DNA of 10,985 nt from Fibrobacterales bacterium (GTDB lineage: Bacteria > Fibrobacterota > Fibrobacteria > Fibrobacterales > JAOPTW01), in assembly GCA_051532055.1 (NCBI GenBank), contig JAOPTX010000106.1:1-10985 (forward strand), read 5' to 3'. The first letter of the stretch is position 1. The number at the start of each line of letters is the position of its first letter. Of the stretch, positions 1,230-10,361 are shown piece by piece. Under the pieces are notes generated by a model that did not search any database, had not been told where the DNA came from, and saw only the letters and a program-made list of their open reading frames with translations. Both the position numbers and the translations under genes were made by a program.

Positions 1230-1310
1230 TGTACTCAATAAGTTCGCAAGTGTAAAAGGTTTTTAGTAATAGGTTGCCCCTAAGCTCGCTCTGTTTTTTG
1301 AATCTATATT
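1230..1310 (+). promoter_or_regulatory. Shared 28-bp motif copy 1 (1230-1257) plus TATATT box (1305-1310) upstream of cotH-1
   Basis: TGTACTCA-ATAA-GTTCGCA-AG-TGTAAAA, 22/28 identical to copy 2. TATATT starts 75 bp after the motif start. SD-like GGGGAG precedes ATG 1339. Confidence 0.7.
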
Positions 1311-1338
1311 TAAATTTCAAATAACACTGGGGGAGCCT

Positions 1339-3115: not shown

Positions 3116-3230
3116 TATTTGTACTCAATAATTTTGATTAAAATAGGGTGTATTTGTACTCATATCGTTCGCACATGTAAAATAACGTCAAAAAAGTGCA
3201 GTATATGTATTCATAAATTTGATTAATATA
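3116..3230 (+). repeat. Imperfect direct repeats upstream of the TIGR02147 gene
   Basis: TATTTGTACTCA exact at 3116-3127 and 3151-3162; TATATGTATTCA at 3202-3213. Copies 1 and 3 continue as ATAATTTTGATTAA and ATAAATTTGATTAA. Confidence 0.6.
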
Positions 3231-3258: not shown

Positions 3259-4074
3259 ATGAATATTTTTGGTTACTACAATTATCGGACCTATCTCAAA
3301 GATTATTATGAATATAAGAAATCACGAGATCGCCATTTTACCTATCGTAAATTTGCTGAGAGTGCAGGGATTAAATCACCGAGCTTGTATGTGGACATGA
3401 TTAATGGTCGAAGAAACATTACACCGGCTTTGTTACCCAAGTTTTCAATTGCGCTCGGGTTAAATGAAAAAGAATCGCAATATCTTATGCAGATGATGCA
3501 TTTTACTCATGCAAAATCTCAAGAAGCAAAAGAAGAAACGTTCAATAAAATGGCTAAAATGCTACCGAGTACCGCAAGAAAGCTTAGTAAAGATCAGCGA
3601 GCGTATTATGAACATTGGTATATCTCGGCAATACGTGAGGCCCTTGCAGTTATAAGTATCGCTGATGACTTTCAAGATCTTGCTCTATTTCTTACTCCGC
3701 GAGTCTCGCTTCCCAAAGTGAAAAGTGCAATGCAGTTGTTAATAGATCTTGATATCATTGAAAAACAGAATGGTTTTTGGCGCTCAAAAAATGGTAGTAT
3801 TAATGGTGACCACATTGATATTTTTACGATGCATGATGTACAAAAACAATTTATGGATTTAGGTAAAGCGAGTCTTGATGTTTTTACTCAAGAAAAAAGA
3901 AATGTATCGGCACTTTCTATGAGCATTTCTGAAGAAGGGGTACAACGTTTAATCCATAAAATTGATGTATTTAGAAAAGAAGCAATTGAAATTGTACGAG
4001 CTGATACTAATGAAAATCAGGTGTATCATTTAAATGTGCAATTTTTCCCGATATCTAAGGAGGCAGAACGGTGA
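3259..4074 (+). CDS. TIGR02147 family protein (N-terminal HTH, C-terminal DUF4423); putative DNA-binding regulator
   Basis: 271 aa, starting MNIFGYYNYRTYLKDYY..KK....FTYRKFAESAGIKSPS....INGRRNI, with YYEHWYISAIRE, RNVSALSMSIS and terminal VYHLNVQFFP; characteristic of this family, which is expanded in Fibrobacter and Bdellovibrio. Confidence 0.9.
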   Translation: MNIFGYYNYRTYLKDYYEYKKSRDRHFTYRKFAESAGIKSPSLYVDMINGRRNITPALLPKFSIALGLNEKESQYLMQMMHFTHAKSQEAKEETFNKMAKMLPSTARKLSKDQRAYYEHWYISAIREALAVISIADDFQDLALFLTPRVSLPKVKSAMQLLIDLDIIEKQNGFWRSKNGSINGDHIDIFTMHDVQKQFMDLGKASLDVFTQEKRNVSALSMSISEEGVQRLIHKIDVFRKEAIEIVRADTNENQVYHLNVQFFPISKEAER

Positions 4075-5420
4075 TTAGATTTATTACATTGATATTGGCT
4101 GTGCTTGTTATAAGTGCGTGTAGTGTTGTTGAGCAAGCAGGTACAACAACTGAATACCCTAATACTATAGCAGGAACCGTTGTCGATTCACTCGGGGGGC
4201 CGGTAGACGGAGCACGAGTATATATGGTAGAACAGTATGGGTGGAGTGATAAGGTGGCGGCAAAAAAATCACCGGTAATTACAACTACTACTACTGATAA
4301 GTCAGGTTCATTTGCTTTTGAGAGAAATGAAAAGAGTGCAGTAAGTATGGAGGTAGTATACGACTCATTAATACAGCAAGTCTTTGATGTACAGGGTGAT
4401 CAAGATAGTATCATGCTCGATACATTAACGTTGGTTTCAAAAAAATGGTTTAAAGGAGTGGTTGTCGATTCGTCCTATTTTAATAGGAAATTATTTATTG
4501 AGTCGACACGTCATTCCGTTGTGGTAGATGGTAAAGGCGCCTTTCTTTTTCGGGGATTGTTAGAGCATGAGTATCGTTTTTTTATCCGCGATACCATAGC
4601 TGGAACTGCTGTGAACATTTCAGATTCTATGGTAACCATTTCGGCAACAACGACCCCTTTTGAAGATTTTAAACTCAAAGATGTTCCTGATGTTACCGTA
4701 AGAAAGATTGATAGTATACCGAGCTCAGATGTTAACAAGGATACGACTGATATAATAGATACTACAGACTCTCAAGATTCGACGGTACACGATAGTACAT
4801 CGGACACCACCTCAACTCCTAATGATTCGGTGTTGAGTTTTGATAACTTTAATGATGGTAATTGGATGGGAAGTGTTGGTGATGAAACCTTTAGTTGGTA
4901 TTTTAGAATAGCATCGTATACATGGCTAAAATATAATGACGCTCAATCAATGATGGGTGAACAGTTCGACAATCGATTTAAAATTAATGCCTCCTCAGGT
5001 GTGGATGGTTATGGATTAAAGATTAAGAATTTTTATGATACGGGAGACTCTATTGCGACATGGGAGCGGAGTGGCGTAATGGCTGTGTTTGATGATAGGT
5101 CAATAAATATTTCTCAGTATTCAAAAATTCGAATTTCTATTAAAGGAACAGGTGCATTGAACATTAATATGTTTTTTCATAAGCTCATTACTCCTGATGA
5201 GTATGAAAATTTCTTTCTCTCTTCAGAGCCAATTCAAGCAGAAGCTGATTGGAAAGAGATTACGCTTAACCTTAATGATTTTTGGTATGTAAATTTTGAT
5301 GCTGAAAGAGATGGCCCAAAGCAAGAAATAAATAAACTTCTCAAAAGAGTACGGCTTATTGGTTTTACCGTTGAGGGGCAGAAATTGATAAGAATAGATT
5401 CAATCGAATTTATACGATAG
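4071..5420 (+). CDS. Lipoprotein with carboxypeptidase-regulatory-like Ig domain(s), Thr/Asp/Ser linker and C-terminal galactose-binding-like (CBM11/CIA30-like) domain
   Basis: GTG start overlaps the upstream TGA (GTGA 4071-4074) after AAGGAGG. Lipobox ISAC, AGTTTEYPN, IAGTVVDSLGGPVDGARV...TTTDKSGSFAF, linker DTTDSQDSTVHDSTSDTT, then FDNFNDG...INISQYSKIRISIKGTG...WKEITLNLNDF...IRIDSIEF. Confidence 0.7.
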   Translation: MIRFITLILAVLVISACSVVEQAGTTTEYPNTIAGTVVDSLGGPVDGARVYMVEQYGWSDKVAAKKSPVITTTTTDKSGSFAFERNEKSAVSMEVVYDSLIQQVFDVQGDQDSIMLDTLTLVSKKWFKGVVVDSSYFNRKLFIESTRHSVVVDGKGAFLFRGLLEHEYRFFIRDTIAGTAVNISDSMVTISATTTPFEDFKLKDVPDVTVRKIDSIPSSDVNKDTTDIIDTTDSQDSTVHDSTSDTTSTPNDSVLSFDNFNDGNWMGSVGDETFSWYFRIASYTWLKYNDAQSMMGEQFDNRFKINASSGVDGYGLKIKNFYDTGDSIATWERSGVMAVFDDRSINISQYSKIRISIKGTGALNINMFFHKLITPDEYENFFLSSEPIQAEADWKEITLNLNDFWYVNFDAERDGPKQEINKLLKRVRLIGFTVEGQKLIRIDSIEFIR

Positions 5421-5559
5421 AGCGAGCGTGTAGGCGCTCATTCAATGGCACTTAGGGGTATTTGCCAAACCAGATCATAATTCTTTCATATCTACGGGGT
5501 GCGAACTTTGTGGAGGTGAGAGCGTTATGTTCTTATATAGAAAAATAGAGAAGGTGTGT

Positions 5560-7464
5560 ATGAAGGTATGTATTGGTGGGCTTGGGCTGTTGTGGCTCTT
5601 ATTGGGATGCTTTAATGATTCGGTTACTGTGCAGGCTGTTGATAATCCAGGTCGTCTGAGTAGTGCAGAAATCGGTAGTGCTGATACCATACCCAAAAGC
5701 AGTCAATCTGAATTGGTATCGTCACATACGGTACATCTACCTATGTCATCATCTACAGAGTTTGGTGATGAAAAAGTAATTGATGACTATGGACCCGTTC
5801 CAGTAGATTTCACAAACTCTGACGGTGTTATCGCTATTGATCTTTCGATTAAGCCAGTACAGCATACTGAGCCATTTTCTGGGTTTGAGGGTAACAGAGG
5901 GACTGATGGAGATCCCCATCGCTACTGGTCCTCGGATATTGAAAACCTGTTGCCCTGGTATCAAGTCGACTTACAAGGAATGTATAGGCTTTCGTCAGTT
6001 GCTCTTACCGCGCGGCAAGATAAATCAAAACCATCATATCGTACTAATGTCGCACTTTGGGTGTCTAATGACCCCACCTTTATAGAATACGAAGAAATTG
6101 GGGTGATTGTTGCTGACGATCCTGATAAAAATCTAACCTATCCACAGGCAGGAGTGTGGGAAGTATCTGTACAATTTCCTGAAAGTTATCGCTATGTACG
6201 TGTCCAAAGAATACATGATGCGGGACACTTTAATTTTGGCGAGTTATCAGTTGTAGGAGAGCTCACTGGCAATGTACTTATCGCGCAGGCAGGGCCCACA
6301 ATAAAAGTAGTTGATACTGATAATAATGGAAGGGAAAAAGTGGAACTCAATGCCGAAGCATCGTTACCGGGGAACTATTCAATAGCTAGTTATCGTTGGG
6401 AGTTAAAAGATTCGGTGATATCAAATTCTAGTACTCATATGCAGGTGTTTCCTGTGGGAAAACATAAAGTAGTACTGACGATAACAGACGAGCTCGGAGA
6501 CAAGGCGGTAGATACACTTGTAGTAATTGTTAAAAAGGGAGATATTTTTGATTCTACAACCCCTTTTACTCCCATAGATCCATGGGAGCTTTCTAAAAAG
6601 GCTGGGAGGGGTATCAATATGGGGAATACGCTTGAAGCAAAAAATGGCGAAGGCTCGTGGGCACCTGCGGCTAAGGAGTACTATTTTGATGATTATCAAC
6701 AAAATGGTTTTACAAATGTGCGGATACCAATTCATTGGGGAATACGTATAGACAATGCGGGTAATGTGGATCAAAAATTTCTTAATCGAGTAGAGGAGGT
6801 TGTGGACTGGTCACTGTCTCGTGGGTTGGTAACTATAATTAATACGCATCATGAAGAGTGGGCGATTAATAACTATAGTGGAAGTAAAGCCAAACTCATT
6901 CGAATATGGGAACAGGTTGCTGAACGGTTTAAAGATAAGCCAAACCTTTTAGTGTTTGAATTATTTAATGAACCTCGTGCACCAATGACCGACAGTGATG
7001 TGAGTGATTTAAATACGATACTATTAAAAACAGTTCGGAAAACAAATCCAAAACGAGTATGTATTGTAACTGGTGGCAATTGGGGTAACTGGCGTGATCT
7101 GAAAAATGTGAGTTGGCCTGATGATCCTTACCTTTGGGCGTCGTTTCACTACTATGAACCTTTTAATTTTACCCATGAGAGTGATTATGAGTGGTCTAAT
7201 TTTGGATCACTTTGGGAGGAAATGGATGATATATTTAGTTGGTTAAAAAATACGAAAGGAATACCAGGATTTGTTGGTGAGTTTGGAGTCAATCATGGTA
7301 AGATGGCAAAGGATTGGGGGTCGGTTTTAAAGTATTATGCAACAGCGACTGAGGCGATTAATAAATGGGAAGGTGCCTATTCCGTGTGGGATGACTCTGG
7401 GTGGTATAAAGTGTACGATCGAAATAAACGTACGTTTAATGAAATTGAAGAGCAGTTACAATAA
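5560..7464 (+). CDS. GH5 endoglycanase (cellulase family) lipoprotein with F5/8-type/F-lectin-like and PKD domains
   Basis: Preferred start is ATG 5560 (MKVCIGGLGLLWLLLGC lipobox, AGAAGG upstream); the ORF track starts at 5527. PWYQVDL...YRYVRV discoidin fold; AQAGP...IASYRW...GKHKVVLTITD PKD domain; GH5 motifs RGINMGNTLEA, VRIPIHW, INTHHE, FELFNEP (acid/base Glu 6970-6972), FHYYEPFNFTH, VGEFG (nucleophile Glu 7279-7281). Confidence 0.92.
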   Translation: MKVCIGGLGLLWLLLGCFNDSVTVQAVDNPGRLSSAEIGSADTIPKSSQSELVSSHTVHLPMSSSTEFGDEKVIDDYGPVPVDFTNSDGVIAIDLSIKPVQHTEPFSGFEGNRGTDGDPHRYWSSDIENLLPWYQVDLQGMYRLSSVALTARQDKSKPSYRTNVALWVSNDPTFIEYEEIGVIVADDPDKNLTYPQAGVWEVSVQFPESYRYVRVQRIHDAGHFNFGELSVVGELTGNVLIAQAGPTIKVVDTDNNGREKVELNAEASLPGNYSIASYRWELKDSVISNSSTHMQVFPVGKHKVVLTITDELGDKAVDTLVVIVKKGDIFDSTTPFTPIDPWELSKKAGRGINMGNTLEAKNGEGSWAPAAKEYYFDDYQQNGFTNVRIPIHWGIRIDNAGNVDQKFLNRVEEVVDWSLSRGLVTIINTHHEEWAINNYSGSKAKLIRIWEQVAERFKDKPNLLVFELFNEPRAPMTDSDVSDLNTILLKTVRKTNPKRVCIVTGGNWGNWRDLKNVSWPDDPYLWASFHYYEPFNFTHESDYEWSNFGSLWEEMDDIFSWLKNTKGIPGFVGEFGVNHGKMAKDWGSVLKYYATATEAINKWEGAYSVWDDSGWYKVYDRNKRTFNEIEEQLQ

Positions 7465-7500
7465 AATTAAAATATAGAATGTGATATGAACTTTGGGATG

Positions 7501-7582
7501 AGTACGCGTTCTGTTCGCATGAGTAAACTAAGTTAAATTTAAATGATGTGTTAAAAATATGTATTTAAAAATTGTATCTTTG
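7501..7582 (+). promoter_or_regulatory. Shared 28-bp motif copy 3 (7501-7528) plus TATCTTTG box (7575-7582) upstream of a structured region with no long ORF
   Basis: AGTACGCG-TTCT-GTTCGCA-TG-AGTAAAC, 18/28 identical to copy 2. TATCTT starts 74 bp after the motif start. TATCTTTG also fits the Bacteroidota TAnnTTTG promoter element. Confidence 0.6.
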
Positions 7583-7817
7583 TTTTCAGTGATGGATCAA
7601 AGTTCTCGTCGAATGAGTTTTACATTACATAAATAGATTTACTGAATCAGCAATCCCAGAAGGCACTATACCCTCAGTGCCAGAGATTCCTGTACTACTC
7701 TAGAAAGCCCTTTCAAAGAGTAGTATGGGAATTCTTTTTACAAAATCACGATTGTAGAGATGTGGGAATACGATGTGTGTCCCTGAAGGTAATGTATGTT
7801 AGTATAGAGGGGTATCT

Positions 7818-7877
7818 ATGACTGATATATGTTATTCTGATGATCATTGTATCCCCGCATCTTACTATATGATTTAA
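7818..7877 (+). CDS. Possible 19-aa small peptide MTDICYSDDHCIPASYYMI
   Basis: GAGGGG (7807-7812) lies 5 nt before ATG 7818; TAA at 7875-7877. Both the SD and the start codon fall in predicted stems. No homology recognised. Confidence 0.25.
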   Translation: MTDICYSDDHCIPASYYMI

Positions 7878-7929
7878 CGAGGCTTATCAAGCTGAGAATT
7901 TAGCGCTTAAGATAATTAGATTAAGATAG

Positions 7930-7963
7930 AAAAAGCACAAGGAGAAAAATCCTTGTGCTTTTT
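7930..7963. terminator. Bidirectional intrinsic terminator
   Basis: Perfect 14-bp inverted repeat AAAAAGCACAAGGA-GAAAAA-TCCTTGTGCTTTTT with A/T tracts on both sides, 26 bp beyond the cotH-2 stop codon. Confidence 0.9.
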
Positions 7964-7989
7964 GTTATTTGTATTGTTTTAATTATTCT

Positions 7990-9450
7990 CTACAGTGATT
8001 CGTACCACTCTTCGACAGCGCTGAGGCCTTCTCTGAGAATCTTTTTTTCTTCAGCTATAGCGGCTCTCCATTTCTTGGGTTTTAAGGCGCCTGTTTTAGG
8101 AAACCCATCTCCATACGTAGTGTATGCTTCTTTAGTCGCATCATTAATCTGACCTTTCCATGTATCTATCATGGTCTCAGCCCTTGGGTAGACATCATTG
8201 ATGAGTCTATCTAATACTTCTTTTGCTTCGTCGGGAAAGCAGAGCCAATAGCTCATAAACTGATTGTCTACTGGGCTTTCGCATTGTAATGCATCAAGTA
8301 CGTCCTCATGCTTCATATGGTCTTTAGAGAAGTCGTTCGGTCGACCGTGAATTGATAGGTGGGCATTGTCTGTGTCCCACGGTATTGAATAGAGCTTGCC
8401 TTCGGTGGGGTCAGAATACCAATATGAGTTATGGCCCATGTACTGAATGCGGAGGTAGGGACTATCCCAGTGTCTTAGGGCAGCGGAGGTGAGTATAGTA
8501 CTCACCAGTTGAGGTACATCCCACCATTTGCTAATCACTTCTTTAATTTCGTCTTCTGTAGAAGCGTCGAGTATCTCTTGCTCAAACTTCTGCATGGCCG
8601 TAAATGTTGGGTTTTCATCCTCATTAGTTTTGAGGGCATTCATAAATGTAGTATCATGGGTGAGGGAGTCACCGGCTACGGGAAGTAATTCTTTATACAG
8701 ATTTCCTTCACCATCTTCCCAGTGTTCTCTGGTAAAGCGGCCATCTATCTGTTCTACAAGAGAAAAGAGACCGATGAGTTCGCCATTAATTTTAAGTTGC
8801 GCATGGACGAGTCTTGGTGCTGGGTTTCCCATTTCTCTATGGAACCAATAGGTAATGCGTTCCCGTAATTGACTATCGTAATGATGCATGTGATGAAATT
8901 GGAGTTTCTTAAGTGAGAAAAATTTTCTATCAGGGTCGGCATCGGTATTAAACTTTACTTTCGTAGAAAGTTTGATACATGTTTTTATTCCACCCAATCC
9001 ATAATGCTCTGCATCTCCACAAGGATACCAGGCGCCCCGACCACCTTTGTAACGAACTTGAATGTCGCGTATAGTGTCACCCTCAAATACGATGTCAGCA
9101 CTTTCGTACACTTCTGCCATTGGGTCAGCGTCGAGGCGTTCCAATGCATCGGGTTCAATAAGTATATTGTATACTTTGACTGGTGCATCATCATTAAAAA
9201 TATAATCACTGTCGGTTGTTTCTGGATTACCAGAGGCGCCAATTTGGTCTTCACTGCTTGGATCGTCTGGGTTGGCGGAGGTCCCACTATGGTCTTCACT
9301 ACTTGAATCATTATTGTGTTGTTCTGATGAATGAGTATCTGAGTCATGGTCATCATCACTTTGGGTTGGTTCCGCACAGGCATAGAAGAGCATGCTGCTC
9401 ATGAGTACCATGCCTGAGAGTAACAAGTGTTTGGTGTTGTGTCTTTTCAT
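7990..9450 (-). CDS. CotH kinase family lipoprotein (paralogue 2)
   Basis: Lipobox FYAC, Asp/His/Ser-rich linker, and motifs VRYKG, STKVKFN, FFSLKKLQF, LRER, QLKING..GLFSLVEQIDGRFT, GNLYK, HWD, HNSY, IPWDTD. Confidence 0.88.
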   Translation of the reverse strand: MKRHNTKHLLLSGMVLMSSMLFYACAEPTQSDDDHDSDTHSSEQHNNDSSSEDHSGTSANPDDPSSEDQIGASGNPETTDSDYIFNDDAPVKVYNILIEPDALERLDADPMAEVYESADIVFEGDTIRDIQVRYKGGRGAWYPCGDAEHYGLGGIKTCIKLSTKVKFNTDADPDRKFFSLKKLQFHHMHHYDSQLRERITYWFHREMGNPAPRLVHAQLKINGELIGLFSLVEQIDGRFTREHWEDGEGNLYKELLPVAGDSLTHDTTFMNALKTNEDENPTFTAMQKFEQEILDASTEDEIKEVISKWWDVPQLVSTILTSAALRHWDSPYLRIQYMGHNSYWYSDPTEGKLYSIPWDTDNAHLSIHGRPNDFSKDHMKHEDVLDALQCESPVDNQFMSYWLCFPDEAKEVLDRLINDVYPRAETMIDTWKGQINDATKEAYTTYGDGFPKTGALKPKKWRAAIAEEKKILREGLSAVEEWYESL

Positions 9451-9494
9451 TAGGGTTCCCTGTTGGTATAGGTGTATTGTGGTTGACAGTATCG

Positions 9495-10361
9495 TTATTT
9501 TTGGGGAACAAAGGTGATAGAAATATTTTTATAGTTATCACTTTTATCAGAAATGGTAAATTTCGTATTATCCAGAGTGAATTTGACTGCATGGTGGGGG
9601 CCAGCTTCGTTCTGTTCAGTAAATTCCATGTGCAATTTGTATTTCCCCGCTGTAACTTGTTTCCCCTTATGGTTTTTTAAATTCCAAGTGATGTTTCTTT
9701 TACTATGTCCGTTGGCTGAAGCTCCGGTTATGGCGTCGAGTAATCCAAGTCCAATTGATGATTTCGCCTTTTGCCATTTGTATAGGTAGGTTGGACGATA
9801 GTGATGGTTTTGTACTCTAGCTTTGAGAGATCGCACAAAGGTTCCATCTGCTTTGGTAATCCAAATGGCATAATAATTCTTGGGTGCATATTCTCCATTA
9901 TAGGTAACGGGGGTGAAAGAGGCGGTGAGGGTTCCTCGGGGCGAAGGTTGTTTGATGGGGGCGTGTGAACTACTTGATGTTTCGGAGCTACTGAGGGCTG
10001 AAGAACTACTTGGTTCAATAGGATTTCTTTTTGACGATGAAGAGATGGGTAAGCTCGATGAAGAAGGGTGTGCCGCACTGATATGTTCTATGCTTGATAC
10101 TGCCTCGCTGCTTATAGATGGATGAGTGCTACTTACACTATTGAAACTAACTGAAATATTCCATTCGGTGTGCGAACTCTGTGATGCAGAACTATGTTTT
10201 GATGTAGTTTGTGTTGAAAGGTTGCTCGATTCTCTAGAGGATTCAACTAGATCTTCCGATGAACTCATTTCAATTACTGAAGATTTTGGTTCATTAGGGG
10301 TTACACACGAGGTGAACAGGATAAAGGGTACAGAAATTACAAGTAACAAAAAATGTTTCAT
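9495..10361 (-). CDS. DUF2271-domain lipoprotein with long Ser-rich linker
   Basis: Lipobox FTSC, ~115-aa Ser-rich region, then YAIWITKADGTFVRSL...LYKW...DAITGAS...ITWNLKNHKGKQVTAGKYKLHMEFTE, typical of DUF2271. Confidence 0.78.
   Translation of the reverse strand: MKHFLLLVISVPFILFTSCVTPNEPKSSVIEMSSSEDLVESSRESSNLSTQTTSKHSSASQSSHTEWNISVSFNSVSSTHPSISSEAVSSIEHISAAHPSSSSLPISSSSKRNPIEPSSSSALSSSETSSSSHAPIKQPSPRGTLTASFTPVTYNGEYAPKNYYAIWITKADGTFVRSLKARVQNHHYRPTYLYKWQKAKSSIGLGLLDAITGASANGHSKRNITWNLKNHKGKQVTAGKYKLHMEFTEQNEAGPHHAVKFTLDNTKFTISDKSDNYKNISITFVPQK

Follow-up and report, generated by a model that had tools for sequence, protein, structure and literature searches.

The 525-bp gap between two convergent genes (positions 7465–7989) in a 10,985-nt contig of a Fibrobacterales bacterium (assembly GCA_051532055.1, contig JAOPTX010000106.1; the whole contig is called the window below) is firmly identified by sequence comparison as the relic of a GH5 cellulase gene that retains a putative promoter and that belonged to a regulon marked by a shared DNA motif. 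Part of the relic's coding sequence, on the + strand, has become a 107-nt hairpin of 39 consensus base pairs (hairpin C, 7757–7863), which arose newly in the relic and was not inherited from the coding sequence. An earlier note, made from the letters of the window, had proposed that 7587–7963 encode a novel structured RNA with its own promoter and terminator. That proposal stands insofar as the + strand is structured, single-copy and without an Rfam family; on the other hand, the largest of its elements comes from a GH5 pseudogene, and the proposed junction is missing. We put it at about an even chance that the promoter is still used and that its + strand transcript is a young non-coding RNA, derived from the gene relic and tied to the regulon. 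The window is contig C106 of a draft genome of 5.17 Mb and 39.6% G+C (G000), and the sole other genome with the locus is that of a congener (G001), where the counterpart contig is L011.

A GH5 pseudogene fragment in the gap

The gap is flanked by a GH5 gene on the + strand and a CotH gene on the − strand and has no long open reading frame (ORF), as the earlier note had described it. The longest ORFs are 24–33 amino acids, and none of them is conserved in G001, including the 25-amino-acid ORF at 7559–7636. A covariance model of hairpin C (R1) was searched against 151 Fibrobacterales genomes, and matched the gap in G000, the syntenic locus in G001, and one further G001 site (50 bits), which falls within the 5′ part of a GH5 ORF. 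Apart from this GH5 paralogue, R1 and a second model searched against 40 genomes (R2) found only the G000 and G001 loci.

Two intact GH5 (PF00150) genes, the parent-type C40:13690–15567 in G000 and P0001 on contig C24 of G001, align in frame with positions 7734–7868 on the + strand (tblastn and tblastx), with 53–62% identity over 42–64 amino acids. The fragment corresponds to about residues 19–63 of the C40:13690 paralogue. With a small database, tblastn gave E values of 2e-12 to 9e-14 for the G000 gap and 1e-17 to 2e-19 for the G001 gap; against the whole genome, the values were 6e-11 and 3e-9. An intact paralogue (L014) scores PF00150 at 1.5e-27. No GH5 similarity was seen past about residue 65, and tblastx of the gap revealed no coding remnant besides the GH5 fragment.

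Compared with the GH5 genes, the relic has lost its start or signal peptide, carries two stop codons and has nothing beyond about residue 65. In G000 the in-frame TAG stops are at 7755–7757 and 7800–7802; the first is at the same position in G001 and the second is one codon apart. G001 retains part of the signal peptide, with AAA in place of the ATG start codon. In the pairwise alignment, G001 has 122 extra bases between hairpin C and the upstream hairpin B (described below), and this apparent insertion is in fact the signal-peptide part, which has been deleted in G000. Translated similarity and disabling lesions (stops, lost start and truncation) are therefore both present. The in-frame homology, the TAG shared by both species, the lost start and signal peptide, and the existence of a parent-type gene with the same motif together identify the gap as the relic of a GH5 gene of the regulon, which died before G000 and G001 split. 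Reassignment of TAG was ruled out as an explanation for the stops, as TAG ends the intact cotH-1 ORF of the window at 2992–2994. The signal-peptide remnant in G001 can also be read as a 26-codon, TTG-started hydrophobic ORF (L011, 5397–5477); it is not conserved, lying within the 122 nt deleted in G000.

The relic also differs from its paralogues upstream of the coding fragment, where it has about 200 extra leader bases, including hairpins A and B, that lack similarity to the paralogue flanks. Local DNA alignment of hairpin A, hairpin B and region D (the stretch downstream of hairpin C) with both GH5 paralogues and their flanks was no better than with shuffled sequence. The leader of the G001 paralogue lacks structure (z = 0.2), and a search of 40 genomes turned up no further copy of hairpins A and B.

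Origin of hairpin C

The relic fragment folds, unlike the corresponding part of the intact GH5 genes. On the R1 structure, 39 of 39 pairs are canonical in both species (9 G-U pairs in G000, 5 in G001), compared with 20 and 25 of 39 for the equivalent coding stretch of the intact paralogues and 10–23 for slid controls. The folding z-scores are −6.37 (G000, 7752–7868) and −4.52 (G001) for the relic, against +0.83 and +0.21 for the intact paralogues. Because all 39 pairs form in the relic while the intact paralogues are no better folded than shuffled sequence, hairpin C is a new structure. Inverted duplication was ruled out as its source by the colinearity of both arms with the coding sequence, 31–38 of about 50 positions matching per arm.

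The outer helix of hairpin C has a distinctive pattern of changes. In its 5′ arm, 4–5 of 10 bases are found in neither paralogue, compared with 0–1 in the 3′ arm, and the two arms are perfect reverse complements of each other in G001. With this cluster of 4–5 changes in 10 nt on one arm and the ancestral sequence on the other, the outer helix resembles the products of the template-switch (quasi-palindrome) mutations that create or repair hairpins, as described by Monttinen and Loytynoja (2022, PMC8794818). We infer that the outer helix is a template-switch copy, in which the 5′ arm was rewritten from the ancestral 3′ arm, and that the first stop codon would have arisen with the same patch. Only in the outer helix are the changes clustered on one arm so as to make it the reverse complement of an opposite arm that stayed ancestral. 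In the remaining helices of hairpin C, the changes fall on both arms and several G-U pairs are present, unlike the product of a single template switch; a single event is thus insufficient to explain the hairpin.

The origin of hairpin C bears on two other explanations of the locus. One holds that the gap encodes a structured RNA of a new and unrelated class, which has a three-way junction and evolved as an RNA gene in its own right; this would fit the strong folding z-scores and the lack of an Rfam match. We regard it as very improbable, since it fails to explain why GH5 coding sequence, stop codons included, makes up the largest helix, why the stem that should close the junction is not conserved, with 122 nt inserted there in G001, and why the minimum free energy (MFE) structure is a linear hairpin with no junction. 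The second explanation is that the gap is an inert relic, consisting of a decaying promoter, a leader and a 5′ GH5 fragment, with the hairpin a by-product of template switching and any transcript mere noise. The firm identity of the pseudogene and the template-switch signature of the outer helix both suit this explanation, the mechanism having been published as a way of making and maintaining stems (PMC8794818). We return below, with the conservation data, to this main rival of the reading that we favour, and consider it possible but rather unlikely.

Regulon motif and putative promoter

The third of the motif copies in the window was placed by the earlier note in the gap, together with a promoter-like box, and both were recovered here. 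A pattern search for the motif GTAC-N7-GTTCGCA-N3-GTAAA on the + strand located this copy at 7502–7527. There are 11 full copies in the 5.17 Mb of G000 and 10 in G001, compared with none for the reversed control. Three of the G000 copies are in the window (1231–1256, 3156–3181 and 7502–7527), five are on contig C40, and one each is on C33, C54 and C93. At least 9 of the 10 other G000 copies are 52–279 nt upstream of a long ORF. The ORFs concerned encode CotH proteins (C40:36379, and cotH-1 in the window), a GH5+fn3+CBM6 protein, and CBM35, VWA, IgGFc-binding-like and TIGR02147 proteins. The motif thus apparently marks a regulon of secreted proteins (CotH, GH5, CBM35, VWA and IgGFc-binding-like) plus a TIGR02147 helix-turn-helix gene, whose product is an obvious candidate for the regulator of the motif genes. 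No mention of TIGR02147 was found in a literature search, and a search on Fibrobacter, small RNA and promoter returned nothing relevant by title or abstract.

The TAT-box TATCTTTG, similar to a −10/−7 promoter element, lies at 7575–7582 (+ strand), 47 nt past the motif. The orthologous box in G001, TATATTTG, is likewise at +47. A TAT...T box is found at +45 to +48 in 6 of the 10 other G000 motif copies, so that copy 3 and its G001 orthologue have the full motif and the box in the same orientation and with the spacing of the regulon (about +45 to +48). We take TATCTTTG to match the TAnnTTTG promoter consensus of the Bacteroidota type. The motif at 7502–7527 probably serves as an upstream activator site or belongs to an alternative promoter, and transcription would start at about 7587–7592.

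Copy 3 is the only full motif copy that is not followed by an ORF, which leaves the gap as a standard regulon promoter with nothing to express. The nearest intact paralogue, the GH5+fn3+CBM6 gene at C40:13690, bears the same motif 78 nt upstream, and the G001 GH5 paralogue has a copy with one mismatch. The putative promoter in the gap can therefore be understood as the dead GH5 gene's own.

Three of the motif genes carry the sequence ACTGGGGG 5–10 nt before the start codon (window 1324–1333; C40 upstream of 13423, − strand; C93 at about 6180). More generally, GGGGG within 25 nt of the start was found for 3 of 11 regulon genes, compared with 1.7% of 2802 crude ORFs.

Predicted fold of the + strand

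Folding of 7587–7963 gave −126 kcal/mol for the + strand (z = −7.88; none of 100 dinucleotide shuffles was as good) and −98 kcal/mol for the − strand (z = −4.99). The + strand therefore folds far better than shuffled sequence, and better than the − strand. Its MFE structure has 130 pairs, of which 20 are G-U, and a single 1×1 A.C mismatch, in agreement with the argument of the earlier note that an excess of G-U pairs over A-C mismatches favours folding of the + strand as RNA. For hairpin C itself, the energies in G000 are −44.8 kcal/mol (+) and −23.5 kcal/mol (−).

From the 5′ end, the putative transcript begins with a variable segment (7587–7660), which matches G001 in 24 of 74 aligned columns. 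This is followed by hairpin A (7662–7681), the 6-bp hairpin of the earlier note, which has a C-rich loop (CCCUC in G000, CCCC in G001), and then by hairpin B (7682–7737), a stem with an apical 4-bp stem that had also been noticed and whose length is about 20 bp. Together, hairpins A and B (7655–7742) have z-scores of −6.9 in G000 and −9.4 in G001. Downstream of hairpin C is region D (7864–7929), which has no conserved structure; it folds weakly and differently in the two genomes (z = −2.0 in G000, −1.1 in G001), and its 3′ part (7906–7929) is almost invariant. A long-range stem of 19 positions, closing a three-way junction, had been proposed as well, and this did not hold: in both the MFE and the centroid structure these positions form the outer part of the continuous hairpin C. 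The G000 MFE structure has a single long-range stem, of 6 bp around hairpins A and B, which G001 has not retained.

The + strand terminator expected at the end of the element was found at 7930–7963. It has a 14-bp stem with T-runs on both sides, and hence on both strands, and is predicted to be a bidirectional intrinsic terminator; it was the only site called by the terminator scan. The convergent CotH gene, with its stop codon 26 nt away, shares this terminator. Hairpin B may also be an intrinsic terminator or attenuator. A U-rich run (7732–7739), seen by eye in both species, overlaps and trails it. The terminator scan did not call hairpin B, possibly because the scan allows loops of 3–8 nt and the apex is larger.

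These terminator-like features are the basis of a further explanation, namely that the region is a structured 3′ region, into which the operon of TIGR02147, carboxypeptidase-regulatory-domain and GH5 genes reads through. Hairpin B would then be the operon terminator, the hairpins would shield 3′ ends from exonucleases, and 7930–7963 would serve the CotH gene. There is no terminator-like site from the GH5 stop codon (7464) to hairpin B, the U-rich run follows hairpin B in both species, and the bidirectional terminator lies close to the CotH stop, all as this explanation would predict. However, it accounts neither for the conserved motif and box with regulon spacing upstream nor for the origin of hairpin C, and hairpin B begins 218 nt past the GH5 stop codon and was not called by the scan. 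We therefore judge it improbable.

No Rfam 15 family reached its gathering score anywhere in the window, and ARAGORN found no tRNA or tmRNA gene, consistent with the lack of tRNA and tmRNA hallmarks remarked on before. Between 7400 and 8050, there were 15 Rfam matches at E ≤ 10, all below the cut-off and most of them on the terminator, the best scoring 26.4 bits against a cut-off of 47. Resemblance to Rfam models is confined to the terminator, which is similar to the terminator parts of the rimP leader, RefA9 and SpF25 models.

The long imperfect palindromes might also suggest an element that acts at the DNA level, such as a miniature inverted-repeat transposable element, the end of an insertion sequence, an integron attC site or a repetitive extragenic palindrome. 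The gap stretch is single-copy in G000, and so is not a multicopy repeat, and R1 and R2 gave no further copies bar the GH5 paralogue. There was no plasmid or phage similarity, and no attC cores were present, the RYYYAAC...GTTRRRY arrangement being absent from both strands of 7465–7989. Nor does the G-U strand asymmetry fit a DNA palindrome, and a DNA-level element is accordingly highly unlikely. BLAST of 40 relatives found the locus in G001 only, and a scan of genome contigs with a 20-nt hairpin B pattern returned only the record of G001. Metagenome scans with the CotH protein and with a 23-nt pattern from the hairpin C apex gave no match.

Conservation between the two genomes

Identity between G000 and G001 varies sharply along the gap. 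Upstream of the motif (7465–7501) it is 43%. In the motif (alignment A1), all 16 specified positions are identical, compared with 2 of the 10 free positions (Fisher p = 3e-5). Identity is 32% over 7587–7660, 59% in hairpin A, 36/41 (88%) in the core of hairpin B (7689–7729) and 91/107 (85%) in hairpin C. Measured against the flanks, where 48 of 116 positions are identical, the conservation of hairpin C has p = 1e-11 and that of the hairpin B core p = 2e-7. Identity then falls to 24/42 (57%) over 7864–7905, followed by 23/24 over 7906–7929 and 34/34 in the terminator; over 7906–7989 as a whole, 83 of 84 positions are identical.

Base pairing was retained through these changes. In the RNAalifold consensus no pair is broken, and there are nine double-sided changes, three of which are in the weak region D stem. 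In hairpin A, two of the six pairs are changed on both sides and are still paired (G-C to U-A and A-U to G-C). Hairpin B differs from its G001 counterpart by two changes from U.G/G.U to U-A/A-U and by two double changes, so that hairpins A and B together have four pairs changed on both sides. All eight changed consensus pairs of hairpin C stay paired, with six one-sided switches between G-U and Watson–Crick pairs and two double-sided changes.

Stability was assessed by simulation, in which the observed number and type of substitutions were placed at random and the sequence was refolded, 1000 times. Despite 21 substitutions in 74 nt, hairpins A and B stay at −34 to −37 kcal/mol, and only 0 and 1 of 1000 random placements were as good. 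The energy of hairpin C is kept through 16 substitutions, with 7 and 17 of 1000 placements as good. The simulation p values thus range from about 0.001 to 0.02 for a comparison of two sequences. Together with the identity profile, these results point towards constraint on the motif core and on hairpins A, B and C.

Identity at four-fold sites was also calculated for the neighbouring genes (window 3259–10361 against L011 844–8078). To the left of the gap it is 0.48 for TIGR02147, 0.69 for the next gene and 0.55 for GH5; to the right it is 0.81 for CotH and 0.87 for the DUF2271 gene. Such mosaic divergence over 7 kb suggests recombination or very uneven constraint.

If the gap is an inert relic, the likeness between the species would come from a recent common ancestor or from recombination in the right-hand block and not from selection. 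The silent sites on the right (0.81–0.87) do equal hairpin C in identity (0.85), and the 83/84 identical positions suggest a recent exchange tract. The lack of conservation of region D and of the three-way junction, and the presence of the locus in only 2 of the 151 Fibrobacterales genomes searched, also agree with inertness. But several features are left unexplained: the motif core is identical at 16/16 positions against 2/10 free ones and next to spacer of 32–43% identity; hairpins A and B keep their stability through 21 substitutions, which random placement hardly ever achieved (0 and 1 of 1000); 7864–7905 has 57% identity, though it lies between two well conserved blocks; and G-U pairs on the + strand exceed A.C mismatches by 20 to 1 in the G000 MFE structure.

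Possible expression and function of the relic

The promoter appears to have been kept by selection after the gene died, judging from the conservation of the motif core. On the reading that we favour, the gap would keep three parts of the dead gene: its motif promoter, a leader of about 150 nt that includes hairpins A and B, and roughly the first 45 codons of the GH5 domain. Nothing else of the gene would be left. Template switching during replication would have had a part in turning the coding fragment into a hairpin. The promoter would fire with the regulon of secreted CotH, GH5, CBM and VWA proteins. The non-coding + strand RNA made from it would be about 150 nt long if it ended at hairpin B, or about 375 nt if it continued through hairpin C to the terminator at 7963, and selection would maintain it. 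How such an RNA might act is speculative. Its likeliest role would be that of a regulator within this regulon, with loops rich in C on hairpins A and B pairing with G-rich ribosome-binding regions, and the hairpin C duplex could be a stabilising module or one that is processed by RNase III.

We tentatively extend this to the idea, which we hold to be possible but on the doubtful side, that the locus is a bacterial non-coding RNA born from a dead paralogue, whose promoter was selected, whose codons became a 39-bp duplex, and which acts in the regulon from which it came. Its transcript may be, for example, a feedback regulator acting through the C-rich loops or an RNase III substrate.

Several observations weigh against a functional RNA. 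Independent transcription and co-regulation are predictions from the sequence, and a sigma-70 scan gave no + strand promoter at 7575. If termination at hairpin B is efficient, hairpin C would seldom be transcribed from the gap promoter. Hairpin C is almost strand-symmetric in G001 (−45.2 kcal/mol for + and −40.1 kcal/mol for −), and template switching can make or mend stems that have no function, in the absence of selection (PMC8794818). The conservation argument uses two genomes, and the consensus structure was derived from those same two sequences. When pairs are measured against the G000 MFE structure, not the consensus, four changed pairs are broken in G001. As the right-hand silent sites reach 0.81–0.87, the 85% identity of hairpin C is not above them. 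Finally, the idea of target pairing comes from the 3 of 11 genes with GGGGG, one of which was read by eye.

Comparison with known RNA genes

In several respects the locus is like the small RNA genes found between bacterial genes, which have their own promoter and a Rho-independent terminator: it is intergenic, single-copy and lineage-restricted, and its features include a box resembling a promoter, stem-loops whose loops are C-rich, and hairpins resembling terminators. It is unlike typical small RNA genes in that its putative full form, at about 375 nt, is long. Jose, Gardner and Barquist reportedly noted in 2019 that some bacterial small RNA genes were born by exaptation of older sequence. 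How bacteria gain new regulatory RNAs is poorly documented. Raghavan et al. (2015, PMC4350180) describe the origin of small RNAs from degraded protein-coding genes as documented in eukaryotes and unclear in bacteria. Here one can read directly which gene family was the parent, which lesions disabled the gene and which changes created pairs. If the relic is expressed, it would be a dated and mechanistically readable case of coding sequence turning into a structured RNA, and would offer access to a regulon of secreted proteins in marine Fibrobacterales that has yet to be characterised. If it is not expressed, it would demonstrate that a pseudogene can acquire very strong folding scores and seemingly compensatory changes; as pseudogenes could then mimic structured RNA, candidate RNAs should be checked against translated paralogues.

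Neighbouring genes and other observations

The upstream neighbour of the gap is the GH5 cellulase gene at 5527–7464 (+ strand), the final gene of a co-oriented run headed by the TIGR02147 helix-turn-helix gene. The downstream neighbour, convergent with it, is the CotH gene at 7990–9450 (− strand). A second, less abundant variant is present in the DNA run of the window, with contigs at 6834–6990, 8053–8122 and 8560–8569. The flanking genes of this variant show many differences, and none of its listed contigs spans the gap. For 6800–8600 no RNA run with the sequence was found, and the single small metatranscriptome from the same sample gave no RNA contig matching the stretch; this has no bearing on whether the relic is expressed. 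In G000, C7:83636–83704 is 73–87% similar to the terminator region 7915–7989 and is probably an unrelated terminator of like sequence. At the start of the window, from the contig's first base onwards, 1–114 and 663–776 form an inverted repeat of 114 nt with 100% complementarity, within an LruC-domain ORF; it is probably a fold-back artefact of assembly at the contig end.

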